A stretch of DNA of 64,000 nt. It comes from Galeopterus variegatus (lineage: Eukaryota). A model generated the notes under the pieces. It worked only from the letters and a program-made list of their open reading frames with translations, made no database searches and was not told the DNA's origin. Position numbers and translations under genes: made by a program. The DNA lies in the NCBI RefSeq assembly GCF_000696425.1, contig NW_007726576.1, positions 538,522-602,521 on the forward strand, in the 5' to 3' direction. Of the stretch, positions 3,117 to 63,685 are shown one piece after another. Position 1 is the first letter of the stretch; the number at the start of each line of letters is the position of its first letter.

Positions 3117-3306
3117 ATGCGCCGGCTCCGTGGCACACTTGGGAGAGTGCAGCGCTTGGGAGTGCAGCGGCGCTCCTGCCGCGGGTTTGGATCCTATATA
3201 GGGATGGCCGGTGTGCTCACTGGCTGAGCGCGGTGTGGGCAACACCAAGCCAAGGGTTGCGATCCCCTTACCAGTCACAGAAAAAGACAAAAAAAAAAAA
3301 AAAAAT
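3117..3306 (+). mobile_element. t-SINE, CTATATAGGG-class 2-unit variant, A18 tail, TSD
   Basis: GCGCCGGCTCCGTGGCACACTTGGGAGAGTGCAGCGCTTGGGAGTGCAGCGGCGCTCCTGCCGCGGGTTTGGATCCTATATAGGGATGGCCGGTGTGCTCACTGGCTGAGCGCGGTG...GGGTTGCGATCCCCTTACCAGTCACAGAAAAAGAC + A18. Flanking repeat AAAAAATGC(G/A)GTTTA. Confidence 0.8.
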
Positions 3307-9075: not shown

Positions 9076-9190
9076 TTTTTTTTTTTTTTGTCCTTTTGAC
9101 CGGCTGTGAGCGCACCGGTCATCCCTATATAGGATCCAAACCCTGCGCTCCCAGCGCTGCACTCTCCCAAGTGTGCCATGGGCTCGGCCC
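9076..9190 (-). mobile_element. t-SINE, CTATATAGGG-class
   Basis: rc of GGGCCGAGCCCATGGCACACTTGGGAGAGTGCAGCGCTGGGAGCGCAGGGTTTGGATCCTATATAGGGATGACCGGTGCGCTCACAGCCGGTCAAAAGGAC + A16. Confidence 0.8.
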
Positions 9191-9639
9191 AAAAAGAATT
9201 TAAAAAGGAGTATCTGAGTCTCAAATTAAAACCTCCTGATCAGTCTACTGAATAAAATTCTACACATTTCAGAATCAAGATAGGATTGACTTAAGATGGT
9301 GAATAAGGTAGAATAATTTTATATTCCTGGACTGAAACCAAACTCCTCATATCTAATCATAGCTATTCAACATTTATTGAGTCCCTCTTTTCAGTACTAG
9401 GCAGGCTTTGCAGATAAAAAACGTGCAATTCTCATATACACTCGAAAGGAATAATGGCAGAGGAAAGATGACAGTTTTAAAGTTAGAATGAAATTGAAGT
9501 AAATTATCTGTGCTAATTGCTTTTTAGTGAATGTGGTTATTTGTGGTGGACTGCTTACTCCTAAGATCATCTGTGAGACAGTAAACCTGTTACATGTGTT
9601 GTACTGTGCACACTTTCTTGACTATGAGGGTACTTCCAA

Positions 9640-11993: not shown

Positions 11994-12120
11994 CTTTTTT
12001 TTGAGACCGGCTGCACCGCGCTCAGCCAGTGAGCGCCGGCCATCCCTATATAGGATCCGAACCCGCGGCAGGAGCGCTCCCAGCACCGCACTCTCCCGAG
12101 TGCGCCGCGGGCTCGGCCCT
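11994..12120 (-). mobile_element. t-SINE, CTATATAGGG-class (in last intron of MPHOSPH8)
   Basis: rc of GGGCCGAGCCCGCGGCGCACTCGGGAGAGTGCGGTGCTGGGAGCGCTCCTGCCGCGGGTTCGGATCCTATATAGGGATGGCCGGCGCTCACTGGCTGAGCGCGGTGCAGCCGGTCTCAAAAAAAAGG. Flanking TTAGGT repeats. Confidence 0.8.
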
Positions 12121-24146: not shown

Positions 24147-25018
24147 ATACCCTTTCCTTTTTAAAATAGTTTTGCCATAAATGCATGTATCCCTAAAAAA
24201 TATATTTAGTTTTGCTTGTTTCTGAGCTTTAACAAGCGTTCTCTATATTTTTTATATACTAGTCCTTTGTCTTTTCACCTTTCTTAGTTCTGATGAATGA
24301 AACTTATTTTGTAGTCAACTTTATCACTTTTTCCTTTATGGTAGGTTCTTTTTGTGTCTTGTTTAAGAAATCTTTCCCTACCACCAAAGTCATAAAGATA
24401 TTACCCTCAATCCTCTAAATACCTAGTATCTAAATATCCTCTTTGTAGGTAGGGCCTTGCTCCACCAGGATTTGATTTTCCTGTGCGGGGTTTGCTCCGT
24501 GTGGATAACCCATCACTCTAACACCTGTGGCGCAGAGCTCATCCTCTCCACATGGACCTGGGACTCACCATCCTTTGTCTGGTTATCATATCTGCACGGG
24601 TATGACTGAAGTCTCTACTCTATTGTGCTAGTTTACCTACCTTCCTTCTGCCAAGTGAATACTGTATTGATTGCTACAGTTTTACACAGTAGGTTTTGAT
24701 TACTACCGGGATAAGTGACTTTGGCTTTTCCTGAGTCATCCACATAAATTTTAGAATCAGTATTTAAAAATTCCATGAAAAACTATGTTGGGAATTTGAT
24801 TGGAACTGCAGTGACACTATAGCAGTTTGAAGAAAAAGACAAATTTATAAAACTGTTTTTCTACTAATAAAAATGGCACATGTAGATTTCAAGAAATCTG
24901 TTAGTTTTTTCTACACAGGCCTTGTTATCTTTTATGAACAATATTGTTAGCAATCTTTTAAAATGTGTTGCTATTGAAAATTATATCTTTTTAAAAGTAC
25001 ATTTATTATTATATAGAA

Positions 25019-25107
25019 ACACAGAAAGAGATGTACATTGTATAGAGATAAATTTGGAAAAAAAATACAGAAAGAGATGTACATTGTATAGAGATAAATT
25101 TGGAAAA
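25019..25107. repeat. tandem duplication, 2 x ~45 bp
   Basis: ACAGAAAGAGATGTACATTGTATAGAGATAAATTTGGAAAA repeated twice with an AAAAT spacer. Confidence 0.8.
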
Positions 25108-26242
25108 TGTATTTGCTTTTTGTACGATGGTCTTAAATCCAGTCATCCTGTAAAACTTCAAAAATTTCTAACAGTTTATTTATAGATTCTTTTGGCTTTT
25201 CTACATAGATCATGCCACCTGACAATGAGGGTTTTTTTTATTTTTTTTGCTTCCTTTCCAATGCTTATACCCTTTTCCTTTGCCTTACTGTGCTGGGTAG
25301 GATCTTTGTAAATGTTGAATAAAAATGATGACAGAAGGCATCTTTGTATTGTTCGTGATTTCAAACAAATGTTCCTAATGTTTCACAGTCACAAAAGACG
25401 TTTGCCGTAGGTTTAATACTCTTCTATCAATCGAGAAAGGCCCCTTTATTGATCGTTTGTTAAGGTTTTTTTTTTTTTTTTTAAATCAAGAATACTGTTA
25501 AATCCACTTCTCCTTTACTCACTGGATTCCTAGGGAAAACCCATCTTGATCGTAAGCGATTATTTTTTTAAACAAGGCTAGATTCAATTTGTTAACGTTT
25601 TGAGATTTTAACATCTGAATTCATGAGTGAGCTTGGCCTGTTGTTCTCCTTTCTTACATAGTTATCTCGTTTTGGTATTGACGTTATAACTGTCTAAGAG
25701 AATAAGTAAGAGTTCTTTGTTTTTAGGAAGACTTTTTCAAGTTTGATATTTTTGCATATAAAACCATCTCAGCCTGGTGTTAAATCTGTGTGGCTGTTTT
25801 AGTTACTATTTCAGGTTCTTTAATAGTTACAAGCCTATTAAGGCTTTCTATTTTTCCTTGGGTCAGTTTGGTTGAATTATATTTTTCCAGGAATTTTTCC
25901 ATGTCATTCAGTTTTCAAATCTATTGGTAAGGAATTGCTCACAGCATTCTTTTACCTTTTTAATCCATGCACACGTCTCTTTTTTATCCAACATATTGTT
26001 TAAGTCTTCATTCTTTCACTCTTTTTAGAGGCTTGTCTATTTTATCAGTCTTTTCTAGGAACCAATGCTGGCTTTACTGATGCTCTCTACTCTATCTTAT
26101 TTGTTGTTTGGCATCCCAAAAGCAATGCTGCTATTTGGCATCTGCCCTCTGGGCAACCTTCTTTCTCCTCCTTGCCCACTAATCCTGGAAATTATCCTGA
26201 TTTTCTGCAAGCTCAGCCAGTGCATCCAAAAACACACGGCAT

Positions 26243-26411
26243 GGGCCAAGCCCGTGGCGCACTCAGGAGAGTGCGGCGCTGGGAGCACAGCAGCGCTCCC
26301 ACCACAGGTTTGGATCCTATATAGGGATGGCCGGTGCACGCACTGGCTGAGCACGGTGCGGCCGGTCTCAAAAAAGACAAAACAAACAAACAAACAAAAC
26401 AAAAACAAAAA
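26243..26411 (+). mobile_element. t-SINE, CTATATAGGG-class with (CAAA)n-like tail
   Basis: GGGCCAAGCCCGTGGCGCACTCAGGAGAGTGCGGCGCTGGGAGCACAGCAGCGCTCCCACCACAGGTTTGGATCCTATATAGGGATGGCCGGTGCACGCACTGGCTGAGCACGGTGCGGCCGGTCTCAAAAAAGACAAAACAAACAAACAAAC. Confidence 0.8.
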
Positions 26412-27720: not shown

Positions 27721-27969
27721 CTAGTAAAAAAACATTAAAATTGATGGCAAGTATGAGTCACAAATTTCTCTTGTAATCAAAAGAAAATCTGGGTTAGTGT
27801 TAAAGAAATAGGTATCACCTTAATTTTTACTAGTATTTTGCACGATCAGATTTACCATCGAAGCCACAACGTCTGGTCTTTCAACTGGTCTTTTCTGTTG
27901 CTGCTACTCAACATTTAGAAAGGATGTTCACAGTGAATGGCTACTCATCAGGTGTTCTGAATCACTCAC

Positions 27970-28190
27970 CTGTAGTTGTGGCAAAGGCCTGCTGAGGATG
28001 GTGGGCCTCAGAATGAGACCCACCTGGTCATGCCACCCATCTCCTACTGCTAGATACACCAGACTGTCAACCACTGCACACTGTAGTTGTGGCAAAGGCC
28101 TGCTGAGGATGGTGGGCCTCAGAATGATACCCACCTGGTCATGCCACCCATCTCCTACTGCTAGATACACCAGACTGTCAACCACTGCAC
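27970..28190. repeat. tandem duplication, 2 x 111 bp (MPHOSPH8 intron 4)
   Basis: CTGTAGTTGTGGCAAAGGCCTGCTGAGGATGGTGGGCCTCAGAATGA(G/T)ACCCACCTGGTCATGCCACCCATCTCCTACTGCTAGATACACCAGACTGTCAACCACTGCAC twice, about 98 percent identical. Confidence 0.85.
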
Positions 28191-29379
28191 CCTTAGTTTG
28201 TATAGATGTGATTTCTGGTGGTGAGGGGGAGAAATAGCAGGTGCCTGAGCACCAACAATGCACCTGGTAAAACTGTACCTGATGCCACCAGCTTTTAAGT
28301 GAATAATAGTGGGAAGAAAACTGGCAAAGCTCCAGACTTGTCATAGGAAATAATCCAAAAAAGAAAACGCTATTAGGAAGAATTGTATTATAAACTCCAG
28401 GTACATAGTAGACAGATTTTATTAGCAAGGGATATTGAAAACCGGACTCCCAGTGAGTACCATTATAAATGGGACAAACAGTAGTTCCATTTAAGGCATA
28501 CTGGGTCACAGTAAAAGTGTGCCTTCAATTGACATACGAGACGCCAGGAATAAGAAAAAGTTAACGAACCAGGTCCAATTTTGCAATATTTTGAATCACT
28601 CTTTGAAGAATAGCAGGGGTTTAAAATGTTTGTATTATTTTGAACAGATATGCTCTTTCACTTACAGTAACTTACGCACGACCCACTGGAACAGCAACTG
28701 TTCCTTCCCAGCTTCAACTACCTGCTTCTACCTTCAAGCCTCGCTCAGCTGAGAAATAAAATCTACTATCAGTATTACTTCAAATACATACAGCTTTTGG
28801 GAGAAAACCCAGGGGAAATTATCCACCTCTTAGAAACACTGCTTCCAAGAGAATGTGTGTTCCAAGTACTTTTGGTACATAAACTATTTATCTACTGGAG
28901 CTTATTCAAACACCATACGGTGATTTTTGAAATGAAGCAGTTGTTTCAGTACTGACATGTGTTATGGATTCTCAATTATGGTATATCTTGAAGTGATCCA
29001 AAATGTGTATTCAACATTATACTTGTGTTGGTACAAATGACACAGAGTAAAATACAATGAATATATTAAGCAAGTCTGTTTTATTTAGCATGCACTATAA
29101 AAAAGACACATTTACTTTTCTGCCATAACTAATTTCTTGTCTAATTCTAACTTACTCCATCAGCATACTGAAAAGGAGGAAAAACTAATTACATAATTAC
29201 ATAAGTTGTTATATAATAAATTTACATAACTGGTTAAACAAAGGCTCTAAATTCCCCAGTGAATAAAATTTTCCAGTTCTATGACATAGCAGGTTAGAAA
29301 AGACTGTCTTATAGTAAATTAATTTCTTTGCATAAAAGATGGTACTGTAAATGGTTAAAATGTTAGTATTTACACTCAC

Positions 29380-36888: not shown

Positions 36889-37108
36889 GGCCGGCCTGGT
36901 GGCGCACTGGATAGTGCGCCGCTTGGGAAGCGCGGCAGCGCTCCCGCCCGAGGGTTCAGATCCCACATGCAGACCGGTTCCCGCTCCCTGGCTGAGCGAG
37001 GCGCGGGAGCAACACCGAGGGTTGCGATCCCGTTGCCGGTCCCCGGTCCGGTACGGGGGCAACACTGAGGGTTGCGATCCGTTGCCGGACACGGAAAAAG
37101 ACAAAAGA

Positions 37109-37145
<37 letters not shown>
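36889..37145 (+). mobile_element. t-SINE trimer, young: about 48-nt pure A tail, TSD CACAAGAAG
   Basis: Full-length trimer, nearly free of CpG decay. Uninterrupted A tract 37098-37145. Direct repeat (A)CACAAGAAG at 36878-36888 and 37146-37155. Confidence 0.92.
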
Positions 37146-37913: not shown

Positions 37914-38083
37914 TCTTTTTTTTTTTTTTAAAAGATGACCGGTAAGGGGATCTCAACCCTTGGCTTGGTGTTGTCAGCACCACGCTCAGCCAGTGAGCAA
38001 ACCGGCCATCCCTATATAGGATCCGAACCCGTGGCCTTGGTGTTATCAGCACTGCACTCTACCGAGTGAGCCACGGGCCGGCC
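37914..38083 (-). mobile_element. t-SINE dimer, young: perfect 17-bp TSD
   Basis: rc of GGCCGGCCCGTGGCTCACTCGGTAGAGTGCAGTGCTGATAACACCAAGGCCACGGGTTCGGATCCTATATAGGGATGGCCGGTTTGCTCACTGGCTGAGCGTGGTGCTGACAACACCAAGCCAAGGGTTGAGATCCCCTTACCGGTCATCTTTTAAAAAAA. Direct repeat TCTGAACTCACACTATA at 37896-37913 and 38084-38100. Confidence 0.92.
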
Positions 38084-38593
38084 TCTGAACTCACACTATA
38101 AAACCTCCTGGCCTTTTCTGCTTGTTGGGCAGACTTACTTCTCACATTGAGAGGTAGTCTCCCTGGTTTGCAAATCTAAATAAAAGCCTCATTTAAATTT
38201 CCTTACAGACAAAGGTGTTTACTTCGACAATATGTACAACACACACACATACCCAGTGTCACCTCCTTCCAGTGATCACCAGTGGAAACTACAAGGTTTC
38301 CCATAGTGCAACCATTATCAAAACACTTTTGGGAGGTTCACTCTTGCACTTTCAGAACCTATTTTGAGTCAAAAAGGAGGTGCCAATACAAATTATTTTC
38401 TTGTATGACATTACAAATTCCTATGAAGAAAATTCCAAAAGAAAAATTTCAAAACCATTTTGGGCCATGGCACTGTGGGAATAAATGCTTACTTCACAAA
38501 ATGTACACTCTTAAAAACAGCTATCCTGAGACAAACTTTAGAGGCAAAACTATGTCTTACCTGAGTAGTAGGTACAGGTGACTATTTTATAAC

Positions 38594-39014
38594 TTTTTTT
38601 TTTTTTTTTAAAGATGACCGGTAAGGGGATCTTAACCCTTGACTTGGTGCCCTTTTGTCTTTTTTACTGACCGGTAACGGGATTGCAACCCTCGGTGTCG
38701 CACCGGCACCGCGCTCAGCCAGTGAGCGGGAACCGGTCTCCACATGGGATCCGAACCCTCGGCCGGCCCAAATTTTTTTTTTGTCCTTTTCGAGACCGGC
38801 CGCACTGCGCTCAGCCAGTGAGCGGGAACCGGTCTCCACATGGGATCCGAACCCTCGGCCGGCCCAAATTTTTTTTTTGTCCTTTTCGAGACCGGCCGCA
38901 CTGCGCTCAGCCAGTGAGCTCACTGGCCATCCCTATATAGGATCCGAACCCACAGCGGGAGCGCTGCTGCGCTCCCAGTGCTGCACTCTCCCGAGTGCGC
39001 TATGGGCTCGGCCC
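38594..39014 (-). mobile_element. t-SINE pile-up: at least 3 head-to-tail elements with an internally duplicated ~110-bp unit
   Basis: Same-orientation array. It comprises a dimer 3' unit (38594-38653), a 2-unit element lacking the box-A region (38654-38770), a 110-bp monomer-like copy (38771-38880) and a CTATATAGGG-class element (38881-39014). The last two share an identical 55-bp 3' end including the tail AAATTTTTTTTTTTGTCCTTTTCGAGACCGGCCGCACTGCGCTCAGCCAGTGAGC. Outer TSD ATTTTATAA(C/T)TTTTT. Confidence 0.85.
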
Positions 39015-39966
39015 ATATTTTATAATTTTTTAAAAAACATACGTGTTTTCTGGATAAAATATCTATTAATAAAAAAAATTTTTTAAATTATTTTAAAAGA
39101 AAGTGAAAGGGCAAAATTCTTAGTATATGATACTAACTTTAAAAGATATACATCTATGTACAACCTGAAAGGCACCTCAAAAGCAGAAAATAGATTTTAC
39201 CTATCATTCTGTAACTGTAACCACTAAAGGATCTGGCCCATATAAGGCACTCTACGTTTACCTAAAAAAAAAAAAGGCTAAAAATTGTAAAATGTTGATG
39301 TACTAACACAGTAGAGGTTCATTTGTCTTACACAGCATTGATCATCAAAGCTCAAAGCAGACTATTAGTTGCCTTACTTTTAGATTTTCAGTCCATTAAA
39401 AATGAAGGGTGAGACCCTATCACACACATGGATATTAAACAGCTCTTCATTTTTTTTTTTTTTTTTTGGTTTGAAATAACCCATGATCAGCAAAGATTTT
39501 CGGTATCAAAGTGCTAAATGATAAAAAGTACTTTAATGAACAAATAACATTCTTGCATCATGTATATTTTCTGGTTAAGTAGTATTAGAACCATTCTTTT
39601 GGTTATTTTAGAACCATTTCTAACTTCTGTGATGTGTAATATTTGCAATATATATTTGGTTTGTGCCTCAAAGTCGCATCCTCCCCCTACCACCAAGAAA
39701 AACATATGCTAGGACAACATAAAGTACCTCTCAGACCTTCTTAAATAAAAGTTATGGGAGGCCATTGATTTGCAGCCAGCTCTTGCACTAGGCCCCAAGA
39801 GACCAAAACAAAATGGAGCCACTCATGCTAAGTGCCATGTAATCAAATTGAAAGTTTAAAAAAACCCAAAACATCCCCATACCAGCAGGCAACAAAACAA
39901 AACAAAACAAAAAAACAGAAAATCCCCAAACAGGCCAGTTTTCCAGAAAATAAAAATAAATACAGG

Positions 39967-40067
39967 GGTGGCAGGTAAGCTCAGCTGATTAGAGCGTGGT
40001 GTTATAACACCAAGGTCAAGGGTTCAGATCCCATAACTGCCAGCCAACCAAAAAAAAAAAAAAAAAC
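39967..40067 (+). mobile_element. t-SINE monomer (tRNA-Ile-like), A18 tail
   Basis: GGTGGCAGGTAAGCTCAGCTGATTAGAGCGTGGTGTTATAACACCAAGGTCAAGGGTTCAGATCCCATAACTGCCAGCCAACC followed by A18. Confidence 0.8.
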
Positions 40068-45268: not shown

Positions 45269-45436
45269 GTGTGTTTTTTTTTTTTTTTTTTGTCCTTTTT
45301 GAGACCTGCCGCACCGCTCTCAGCCAGTGAGGGCTGTGAGCGCACCGGTCATCCCTATATAGGATCCAAACCTGCGGCGGGAGTGCTGCTGCACTCCCAG
45401 CGCCACACTCTCCCGAGTGCACCACGGGCTCGGCCC
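45269..45436 (-). mobile_element. t-SINE, CTATATAGGG-class, TSD CAAGTGAAGTGT(G)TTT
   Basis: rc of GGGCCGAGCCCGTGGTGCACTCGGGAGAGTGTGGCGCTGGGAGTGCAGCAGCACTCCCGCCGCAGGTTTGGATCCTATATAGGGATGACCGGTGCGCTCACAGCCCTCACTGGCTGAGAGCGGTGCGGCAGGTCTCAAAAAGGAC + A17. Direct repeat AAGTGAAGTGT flanks both sides. Confidence 0.9.
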
Positions 45437-45753
45437 AAGTGAAGTGTTTTGACATATGCCTTTTTTTTTCCCCTTTCATCTTACTCTTAACTTAAAGGAA
45501 AATATTATCCAACATTCATGTCCAAACTATACTTGTCTGTCAGCTGCATTGTAGGTTGGTTGCAGAAAGAAGAGTTGGGCAAAAATCACTGAAAAGTATT
45601 GTATGAAAACTCAATTGGCGATATGGATTTTACACAAAGAAATACTACATATTTTATTACTTGTAAATTATTTACTACAACATGCTTTATAACAATAAGA
45701 TTTATAACAAACTCATGTACATAAAAAAATAAGTATGAGATAAAACATGATAC

Positions 45754-46860: not shown

Positions 46861-47240
46861 TATACATGAAAAGTTATTTAACACTGCTCTATACATGTGC
46901 ACTTACAGAATTATCATTAACTATTTACATTTTTTCTTTACAAAATAACCTGTTATGTGCTCATTTTCATCACTGCTATTGAACACTGTACTGAAGTTCC
47001 AGCCACAGCAATTAGATAAGAAAAAGAAATAAAAGACATCCAGTTTGAAAAGGAAGAAGCACAACTGTTGAGTATTCACAGATGACATGATCCTGCACAT
47101 AGAAAATCCCAAAGAATTCCACAAGAAAGCTACTTGAGCTAATAAATGAATTCAACAAAGATGTAGGGTACAAAACAAACACACAGAAATCGGTTGTGTT
47201 TCTAAACACCTGCAATGAACAATCTGACAAGAAAATTAAG

Positions 47241-47430
47241 GGCCGGCCCGGTGGCGCACTGGAGAGTGTGCCGCTTGGGAGCGTGGCGGCGCTCCCGCCA
47301 AGGGTTCGGATCCCATGTGGAGACCGGTTCCCGCTCGCTGGCTGAGTGTGGTGCGGGTGCGGCACCGAGGGTTGCGATCCCATTGCCAGCCATGAAAAAA
47401 AAGACAAAAAGGAAAAAAAAAAAAAAGAAA
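47241..47430 (+). mobile_element. t-SINE trimer inserted in L1, TSD (A)GAAAATTAAG
   Basis: GGGCCGGCCCGGTGGCGCACTGGAGAGTGTGCCGCTTGGGAGCGTGGCGGCGCTCCCGCCAAGGGTTCGGATCCCATGTGGAGACCGGTTCCCGCTCGCTGGCTGAGTGTGGTGCGGGTGCGGCACCGAGGGTTGCGATCCCATTGCCAGCCATGAAAAAAAAGAC... Direct repeat GAAAATTAAG on both sides, interrupting L1 ORF2-homologous sequence. Confidence 0.9.
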
Positions 47431-48453: not shown

Positions 48454-48524
48454 CGGTCCGGTACGGGGGCAACACTGAGGGTTGCGATCCGTTGCCGGAC
48501 ACGGAAAAAGACAAAAAAAAAAAA
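48454..48524 (+). mobile_element. 5'-truncated t-SINE (third unit of trimer only), with TSD
   Basis: GCCGGTCCGGTACGGGGGCAACACTGAGGGTTGCGATCCGTTGCCGGACACGGAAAAAGAC + A14. Direct repeat ATCTGATAAAG at 48443-48453 and 48525-48535. Confidence 0.8.
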
Positions 48525-56465: not shown

Positions 56466-56645
56466 GGGCCGGCCCGTGGCTCACTCGGGAGAGTGTGGTG
56501 CTGATAACACCAAGGCCCCGGGTTCAGATCCCATATAGGGATGGCCGGTTCGCTCACTGGCTGAGTGTGGTGCTGACAACACCAAGTCAAGGGTTAAGAT
56601 CCCCTTACCGGTCATCTTTAAAAATAAATAAATAAATAAAAATAA
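56466..56645 (+). mobile_element. t-SINE dimer inserted in L1
   Basis: GGGCCGGCCCGTGGCTCACTCGGGAGAGTGTGGTGCTGATAACACCAAGGCCCCGGGTTCAGATCCCATATAGGGATGGCCGGTTCGCTCACTGGCTGAGTGTGGTGCTGACAACACCAAGTCAAGGGTTAAGATCCCCTTACCGGTCATCTTTAAAAATAAATAAATAAATAAAAATAAAG. Flanking AAGAAGAA repeats. Splits L1 ORF2 homology. Confidence 0.9.
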
Positions 56646-58547: not shown

Positions 58548-58635
58548 GCTGGCAGTTTAGTTCAGTTGGTTAGAGTACAGTGTTATAACACTAAGGTCAA
58601 GGGTTTGGATACCCTTACCAGCCAGCCACAAAAGG
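58548..58635 (+). mobile_element. t-SINE monomer in L1
   Basis: GGCTGGCAGTTTAGTTCAGTTGGTTAGAGTACAGTGTTATAACACTAAGGTCAAGGGTTTGGATACCCTTACCAGCCAGCCAC. Confidence 0.75.
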
Positions 58636-63591: not shown

Positions 63592-63685
63592 TTTTTTGGC
63601 GGCTGGCCGGTACAGGGATTGAACCCTGGACCTTGGCGTTATCAGCACCACGCTCTAACCAACTCAGCTCACTGGCCGTCCATGC
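63592..63685 (-). mobile_element. t-SINE monomer
   Basis: rc of GGACGGCCAGTGAGCTGAGTTGGTTAGAGCGTGGTGCTGATAACGCCAAGGTCCAGGGTTCAATCCCTGTACCGGCCAGCCGCCAAAAAATG. Confidence 0.75.

Follow-up and report, generated by a model that had tools for sequence, protein, structure and literature searches.

Short-homology tandem duplications and unequal recombination between Alu elements are known in primates. In colugos, the t-SINE family was reportedly described by Piskurek et al. in 2003 and the CYN family by Schmitz and Zischler in 2003. Dermopteran t-SINE and CYN families are cited in the passages of PMC3531059 that concern them. In the Gobi jerboa, extreme tandem multimers of Dip and B1 SINEs, formed by insertion next to or into existing copies, are described in the corresponding part of PMC10702118, which cites PMC8466645 on this point. 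Vassetzky et al. (2023) proposed that SINE-derived satellites start with unequal homologous recombination between copies of a SINE, and noted that none had been seen in mammals (PMC10702118). Our search of literature text with diagnostic SINE sequence strings gave no match, and nothing directly useful was found in the literature on SINE insertion into existing tails.

The window, by which we mean the whole 64,000-nucleotide stretch of Galeopterus variegatus DNA analysed here, is free of N and of soft-masking. With the element as query, BLAST against the window gave 66 segments, which represent at least 25 related copies, or about one per 2.5 kb. The elements are made of tRNA-like monomers and an A-rich tail only, and most copies have clear target-site duplications of 9–15 nt. 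In structure they match the t-SINE/CYN family of colugos, of which they are probably members. A head with box A and box B (in segment 1, described below), an A-rich tail with target-site duplication and an interspersed, multi-copy distribution were all found, as in tRNA-derived SINEs mobilised by LINE-1. The following names are working labels for the four structural types that reading and alignment of the window copies distinguished.

Monomers, and type A: dimer ending in ...AAGGGTTAAGATCCCCTTACCGGTCATCTTT(A)n
Type B: GC-rich trimer
B2: two-monomer version of type B, with an intact copy at about 47240-47425
Type C: internally deleted dimer, ending in ...GCGGCCGGTCTCAAAAAGGAC(A)n

Other type C copies lie at 9080-9191, 11998-12119, 26242-26386 and 45282-45437, and a full dimer for comparison is at 3133-3297. 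In alignment, type C elements look like derivatives of the full dimer through an internal deletion that joined GGTGCGG to CCGGTC. The copy at 45282-45437 has an added short internal duplication (GCTCACAGCCCTCAC). Internal deletions and duplications seem to be frequent in this SINE family. After the type B copy at about 36890-37107 there is an unusually long A-rich run at 37095-37145 (TRF: 51 nt, 84% A), which suggests a young insertion or an expansion of the tail.

Several sibling copies were called tRNA by ARAGORN or Rfam. Three old monomer copies, at 63604-63677 (minus strand), 39970-40042 (plus strand) and 58551-58624 (plus strand), pass the Rfam tRNA gathering score. The first of these has an A-rich tail and was called tRNA-Ile (gat) by ARAGORN, and the type A copies at 37934-38008 and 56542-56616 were called tRNA-Val (gac). 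These are SINE monomers and not functional tRNA genes, which automatic tRNA annotation would over-call. Within 38594-39015 no Rfam tRNA match was found at E<=1, and none was called by ARAGORN.

Reading of the sequence showed GC-rich, SINE-like DNA at 38594-39015 with AT-rich flanks on both sides. The SINE-derived pieces across this interval all lie on the minus strand, head-to-tail, each adjoining an A-rich tail. As read from the sequence, the interval holds three tRNA-derived SINE copies in an ordinary tail-to-head stack. Its features, in the order of the sense strand, are as follows.

39016-39031, minus strand: 5′ copy of the outer target-site duplication, sense AAAAAATTATAAAATA, with TTTTTT preceding it on the sense strand
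39015, minus strand: single extra T between the 5′ target-site copy and segment 1
38869-39014, minus strand: segment 1, a full-length type C tRNA-derived SINE, aligned with the four other type C copies in the window
At 39002, minus strand: box-A-like TAGCGCACTCGGG of segment 1 (motif scan)
Within 38869-39014, minus strand: box-B-like GGTTCGGATCC of segment 1 (motif scan)
Ending at 38869, minus strand: own tail of segment 1, GGTCTCGAAAAGGAC+A10 (GGAC+A10; sequence read)
38866-38868, minus strand: TTT linker from the type C tail to the next head, recurring as TTT at 38770-38772
38706-38919, minus strand: tandem duplication, period 96, 2.2 copies (TRF and direct-repeat search)
38770-38865, minus strand: extra chimeric 96-nt unit, sense register GGGCCGGCC...TTT (alignments)
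38651-38769, minus strand: B-prime, a SINE of the B2 dimer type (aligned pairwise to the intact B2 at 47240-47425; BLAST 85.7% over 119 nt)
38610-38649, minus strand: segment 4, a 5′-truncated type A 3′ end, last 40 nt (CACCAAGTCAAGGGTTAAGATCCCCTTACCGGTCATCTTT; BLAST 94–95% against other type A ends)
38594-38609, minus strand: terminal A16 tail, a T16 run on the plus strand (sequence read, TRF)
38583-38598, minus strand: outer target-site duplication, 3′ copy (sense AAAAAGTTATAAAATA), with the first five A lying within the A16 run
From 38593, minus strand: GTTATAAAATA on the sense strand beyond A16, then unique DNA

By these alignments, the block before duplication is made of three pieces: the type C SINE, a box-A-deleted B2 dimer, and the truncated type A end with A16. 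The earlier note had described four SINE segments in head-to-tail order. Their single orientation and their adjoining A-tails were borne out, and the four segments turned out to be three independent pieces plus one duplicated chimeric unit. A segment boundary that it had placed at 38880/38881 lies about 14 nt off: 38869 is the last position of the type C tail and 38865 the first of the following head.

Alignment of B-prime with the intact B2 copy showed that 51 nt of the first monomer are missing, corresponding to the box-A and anticodon-arm region. The deletion joins GGGCCGGCC to GAGGGTTCGG, and the breakpoint sequences GGGCCGGCC and CTCCCGCC resemble each other. In a MAFFT alignment, a 5′ truncation together with a smaller deletion could instead account for the gap of about 51 nt. 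The B-prime tail AAAAAAGACAAAAGG ends at the point where the usual (A)n starts. A motif scan found a box-A-like motif of the composite in segment 1 only, and within the block it detected no sense-strand stretch of at least four T, the first Pol III T4 terminator being at 38549.

TRF reported a tandem repeat at 38706-38919 with a period of 96, 2.2 copies, 99% matches, no indels and a score of 421. In the direct-repeat search, 38706-38801 and 38802-38897 were identical at 95 of 96 positions, and a third, partial copy of 22 nt follows at 38898-38919, giving a length of 214 nt (2x96+22). The exactly duplicated unit of about 110 bp reported earlier is thus a real duplication with a unit of 96 bp, well in excess of what chance would give. 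The repeated 22 nt, here called X, have the sequence GCTCACTGGCTGAGCGC(A/G)GTGC and form the conserved start of the second monomer. The layout is X1 (38898-38919), 74 nt, Xrec (38802-38823), 74 nt and X2 (38706-38727). Each interval of 74 nt consists of 31 nt (L, the type C tail plus TT) followed by 43 nt (H, a T plus the box-A-deleted head), and the two intervals are identical (L1 and L2, 31/31; Ha and Hb, 43/43). The identical tail region of about 55 bp noticed before corresponds to X (22 nt) and L (31 nt), and its identity was confirmed.

The only mismatch of the array is at 38710 versus 38806 and 38902, where X1 and Xrec carry A and X2 carries G (position 18 of X). The exchange therefore falls somewhere in positions 1–17 of X. 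Xrec has B-type sequence before it, C-type sequence after it, and the type C variant A at position 18. In the extra unit the 5′ 43 nt match the B2-type neighbour and the 3′ 53 nt match the type C neighbour. The extra unit also carries the private variants GCGCAGTGC and CTCGAAAA of segment 1, with the same A10 and TTT; in the remaining type C copies GCGCAGTGC is replaced by GCGCGGTGC or something close to it, and CTCGAAAA by CTCAAAAA. The H-X-L junction in the extra unit reads GGTTCCC-GCTCACTGGCTGAGCGCAGTGC-GGCCGGTCTCG, with GGTTCCCGCTCACTGGCTGAGCGCAGTGCGGCCGGTCTCG as its diagnostic string; the tail-head junction string is AAAAAAAAAATTTGGGCCGGCC and the box-A deletion string is GGGCCGGCCGAGGGTTCGGATCC. 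On this alignment the extra unit is a chimera of both neighbours, with a B2 head and a type C tail, and not a separate insertion, although which copy of a perfect tandem duplicate is called extra is an arbitrary choice.

X was found in all other type B and type C copies of the window. This indicates that the homology predates the duplication, with one X in segment 1 and one in B-prime, 96 bp apart. Direct repeats existing beforehand at the boundaries, n+1 copies of the repeat and a recombinant middle copy, which characterise homology-mediated tandem duplication, were all found here. The X-74-X-74-X structure fits exactly what would be produced by unequal crossover or slippage between X2 and X1. 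Unequal crossing-over, one of the two origins put forward in the earlier note, therefore agrees with the layout, and the accompanying term "nascent array" was too strong for 2.2 copies. From these features we infer a recombination mechanism and a biological duplication rather than an assembly error.

The other origin put forward was serial insertion into existing poly-A tails from one deletion-bearing source gene. The fusion of GGGCCGGCC to GAGGGTTCGGATCCCATGTGGAGACCGGTTCCCGC on which it was founded (GGGCCGGCC joined to GAGGGTTCGGATCC...) does occur twice on the minus strand, as a 23-mer at 38747-38769 and 38843-38865. This 23-mer has no further occurrence in the 64 kb, with zero expected by chance. 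With up to three mismatches allowed, the box-A-deleted form was found in the 64-kb window only in the two duplicated units; two other matches, with three mismatches, are the normal undeleted GCTCCCGCC-GAGGG of intact copies. Separate retropositions of the two identical units from such a source gene would explain their common orientation, the A-run before each and the unusual head shared by both. However, the 3′ half of the extra unit is type C with type C private variants and not B2, the A10 and the TTT after it are identical in both units, and the spacing exactly equals the distance between X1 and X2. Neither the tail length nor the flank would be reproduced by two independent retropositions, which cannot produce the shared private variants, A10 and TTT. 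No other such copy is present in 64 kb despite at least 25 family members, and within the window there are no dispersed box-A-deleted copies with differing flanks, as a transposing subfamily would have. We consider this origin extremely unlikely. A head without box A has also lost half of the internal Pol III promoter, which again speaks against a source gene of this kind. As far as the alignments go, the box-A deletion is an event that arose once and was then copied with the rest of the unit. The source gene is thus not supported, and serial insertion, which lacks support for the two identical units because the extra one is chimeric, probably holds for the three-piece composite. Two adjacent identical copies are insufficient ground for inferring a "box-A-deleted subfamily".

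Each 96-nt unit contains nine CpGs; none of the 18 has been lost, and the copies do not differ at any of them. Compared with a window-derived type C consensus, segment 1 is changed at 11 of 38 CpG positions and at one of 86 non-CpG positions, and its siblings are similar. With nine of nine CpGs intact in both copies and 11 of 38 changed in segment 1, the duplication would be the most recent event of the locus, unless it is an artefact of assembly. Under assumed rates of 1–2.2e-9 per site per year and a 6–15-fold CpG excess, the zero differences between copies give a 95% bound of roughly 2–8 Myr. Gene conversion could be another way of keeping both copies identical.

If the duplicate is an artefact, the true locus is X1-74-X2, and a false join was made through the 17–22-nt X match during assembly or gap closing. 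A perfect duplicate inside repeats, with copies 100% identical including 18 CpGs, is what a mis-join at a short overlap is expected to produce. It is the sole perfect long-period tandem repeat of the window, other duplicates of about 100 bp being 95–98% identical, and its period is near short-read length. One published colugo draft was built with SOAPdenovo2 and then gap-filled (PMC4980104), and this is not necessarily the assembly of the present window. On the other hand, neither an N nor a visible gap scar is present in the window, and an error at k > 23 needs reads that hold the H-X-L junction. Nearby in the window, in non-SINE DNA, there are also real duplications of comparable size, each in two copies: 1687-1904 (period 108, 98%, one indel) and 27963-28198 (period 111, 95%). 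Such events are therefore background here, and small tandem duplications of differing ages appear to be common in this window. A 46-bp tandem repeat in two copies (97%) is also present at 25017-25107. We regard an artefact as rather unlikely. The bound of roughly 2–8 Myr compares with a split of Galeopterus and Cynocephalus at about 11 Ma (PMC4980104). If the duplicate is real and as young as the CpGs suggest, the Philippine colugo is expected to lack it and lineages of the Sunda colugo may be polymorphic for it, which would give a simple 96-bp length marker.

A direct repeat matching at 15 of 16 positions (38583-38598 and 39016-39031) brackets the whole block, a feature absent from the earlier note, and the 10-nt exact core of this outer target-site duplication adjoins both block ends. 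The probability of a match this long anywhere in the 25-nt flanks is about 0.003–0.007 in AT-rich controls, the positional constraint not being counted. The bottom-strand nick inferred at the outer site is TTTTTT/AAAAAA, and TTTT/AA is a nick site of the LINE-1 endonuclease type. Flanking repeats were then sought for each piece and combination on the de-duplicated sequence. The whole block is flanked by TTATAAAATA. For segment 1 alone the repeat is AAAAAATT, that is A6+TT, the first 8 nt of the outer target site, which stands directly after its A10; ATAAAATA comes after the last tail. No convincing target-site duplication was found on the de-duplicated sequence for B-prime alone or for segment 4 alone.

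Some further readings were discarded. AAAAAAG as a target-site match of segment 4 is 9 nt away from the 5′ end of that segment and requires an extra deletion. Insertion of type C upstream of a pre-existing B-prime conflicts with the outer duplication, which pairs the type C head with the last tail. Relative ages based on divergence from window-derived consensuses rest on too few non-CpG differences to put the three insertions in order.

The best explanation of the locus, which we hold with slightly better than even confidence, would be a neutral retroposon fossil made by nested insertions and then by an X-mediated 96-bp duplication. In a first step, a full type C SINE would have inserted by LINE-1-type target-primed reverse transcription at TTTTTT/AAAAAATTATAAAATA, making a 16-bp duplication. 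A B2 dimer, already carrying the deletion of about 51 nt in the box-A region or acquiring it later, may then have inserted in the same orientation into an A-run made up of the tail of type C and of A6TT, with which the 3′ target-site copy begins. This insertion, of B-prime with or before segment 4, would duplicate A(n)TT and leave ATAAAATA after the last tail. Third, a 5′-truncated type A end would have inserted at, or joined to, the start of the A-run of the B2 element. Much later, misaligned 22-nt copies of X would have duplicated the 96 bp between them by unequal crossover or replication slippage, copying the box-A-deleted head as well.

We infer the order of the first three steps. The location of AAAAAATT directly after the type C tail favours nesting and accounts for the odd TT between an A-tail and the next head, with only two or three informative bases (TT) making up this evidence. 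Nested insertion into A-rich tails, with type C first, probably built the three-piece composite. Truncated insertions like segment 4 do occur in this family, as shown by 48459-48516, where the 5′-truncated last monomer and the tail of a type B SINE lie within a perfect target-site duplication of 11 nt (ATCTGATAAAG).

The composite may instead have come in one retroposition, through a long composite Pol III transcript or template switching of the reverse transcriptase, with the 96-bp duplication following. There is one clear target-site duplication around the whole block, the sense strand of the composite has no T4 Pol III terminator, and B-prime and segment 4 have no recognisable target-site duplications of their own, all of which agree with a single event. 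The SINE family is also known in dimer and trimer forms, which counts in the same direction. However, a single event leaves the TTT unexplained, while nesting predicts that AAAAAATT after the type C tail should equal the start of the outer duplication, as it does. Full A-rich tails connect the segments, in contrast to the direct monomer junctions in the dimers and trimers of the window, and the B-prime tail ends before (A)n, which fits poorly with a switch onto the 3′ end of an RNA. The composite has no second copy within the 64-kb window. Taken together, one retroposition is a rather unlikely origin.

Nothing suggests that the locus has a function. The two ORFs with repeated peptides pointed out earlier are present, at 38582..38923 and 38655..39086, and the peptide repeat is a trivial one, because 96 nt equal 32 codons. 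Neither of them contains a Pfam domain, no homologue of the 113-aa ORF was found among 5.8 billion clusters, and exact matches to the two repeat-bearing ORFs in public assemblies are not on record.

The 96-bp chimeric unit could also be viewed as the seed or a dispersed outlier of a mammalian SINE-derived tandem array family, in which case longer arrays of the unit would exist elsewhere in the genome. SINE-derived satellites have many units, usually at several loci, and here there are 2.2 copies at a single locus in the window; we find this view very improbable. In a milder version of it, the duplicate may be a segregating 96-bp indel and a population marker among colugo lineages. The locus shows only the proposed first step toward SINE-derived tandem repeats and has little importance beyond annotation.

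Compared with the dermopteran t-SINE and CYN families, the window SINEs are alike in their tRNA-like monomers with an A-rich tail, their monomer, dimer and trimer forms and their high copy number, and the oldest monomers of the window still score as tRNA. The block differs from these families in that it is not a regular multimer; complete A-rich tails link its pieces, and one unit is a local duplicate at the DNA level. With the jerboa Dip and B1 multimers it shares the same-orientation, head-to-tail stacking, at a single locus, of whole SINEs with tails that belong to different families. Unlike those multimers, it has three pieces, two of them defective (one by internal deletion, one by 5′ truncation), plus a later segmental duplicate. 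The squamate sSat (PMC10702118) similarly has a SINE part in tandem with a longer SINE-like unit at the end, and the initial duplication by unequal homologous recombination that is proposed for sSat corresponds to what is seen here. However, sSat reaches up to about 1000 units at many loci, whereas the colugo locus has 2.2 copies at one locus with no sign of amplification or homogenisation, and its unit spans the junction of two different SINEs.

As in primate Alu-Alu recombination, direct repeats in neighbouring SINEs would have been the substrate for misalignment, and the product has n+1 copies of the homology. The homology here differs in being only 22 nt long (21/22 identical), which makes replication slippage or microhomology-type repair as likely as a meiotic crossover. 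Stacked same-orientation SINEs and dimer-amplifying SINEs are well known, and the locus is an ordinary one of an already known kind. It offers a worked example of how short homologies between neighbouring SINEs of different subfamilies cause small tandem duplications.
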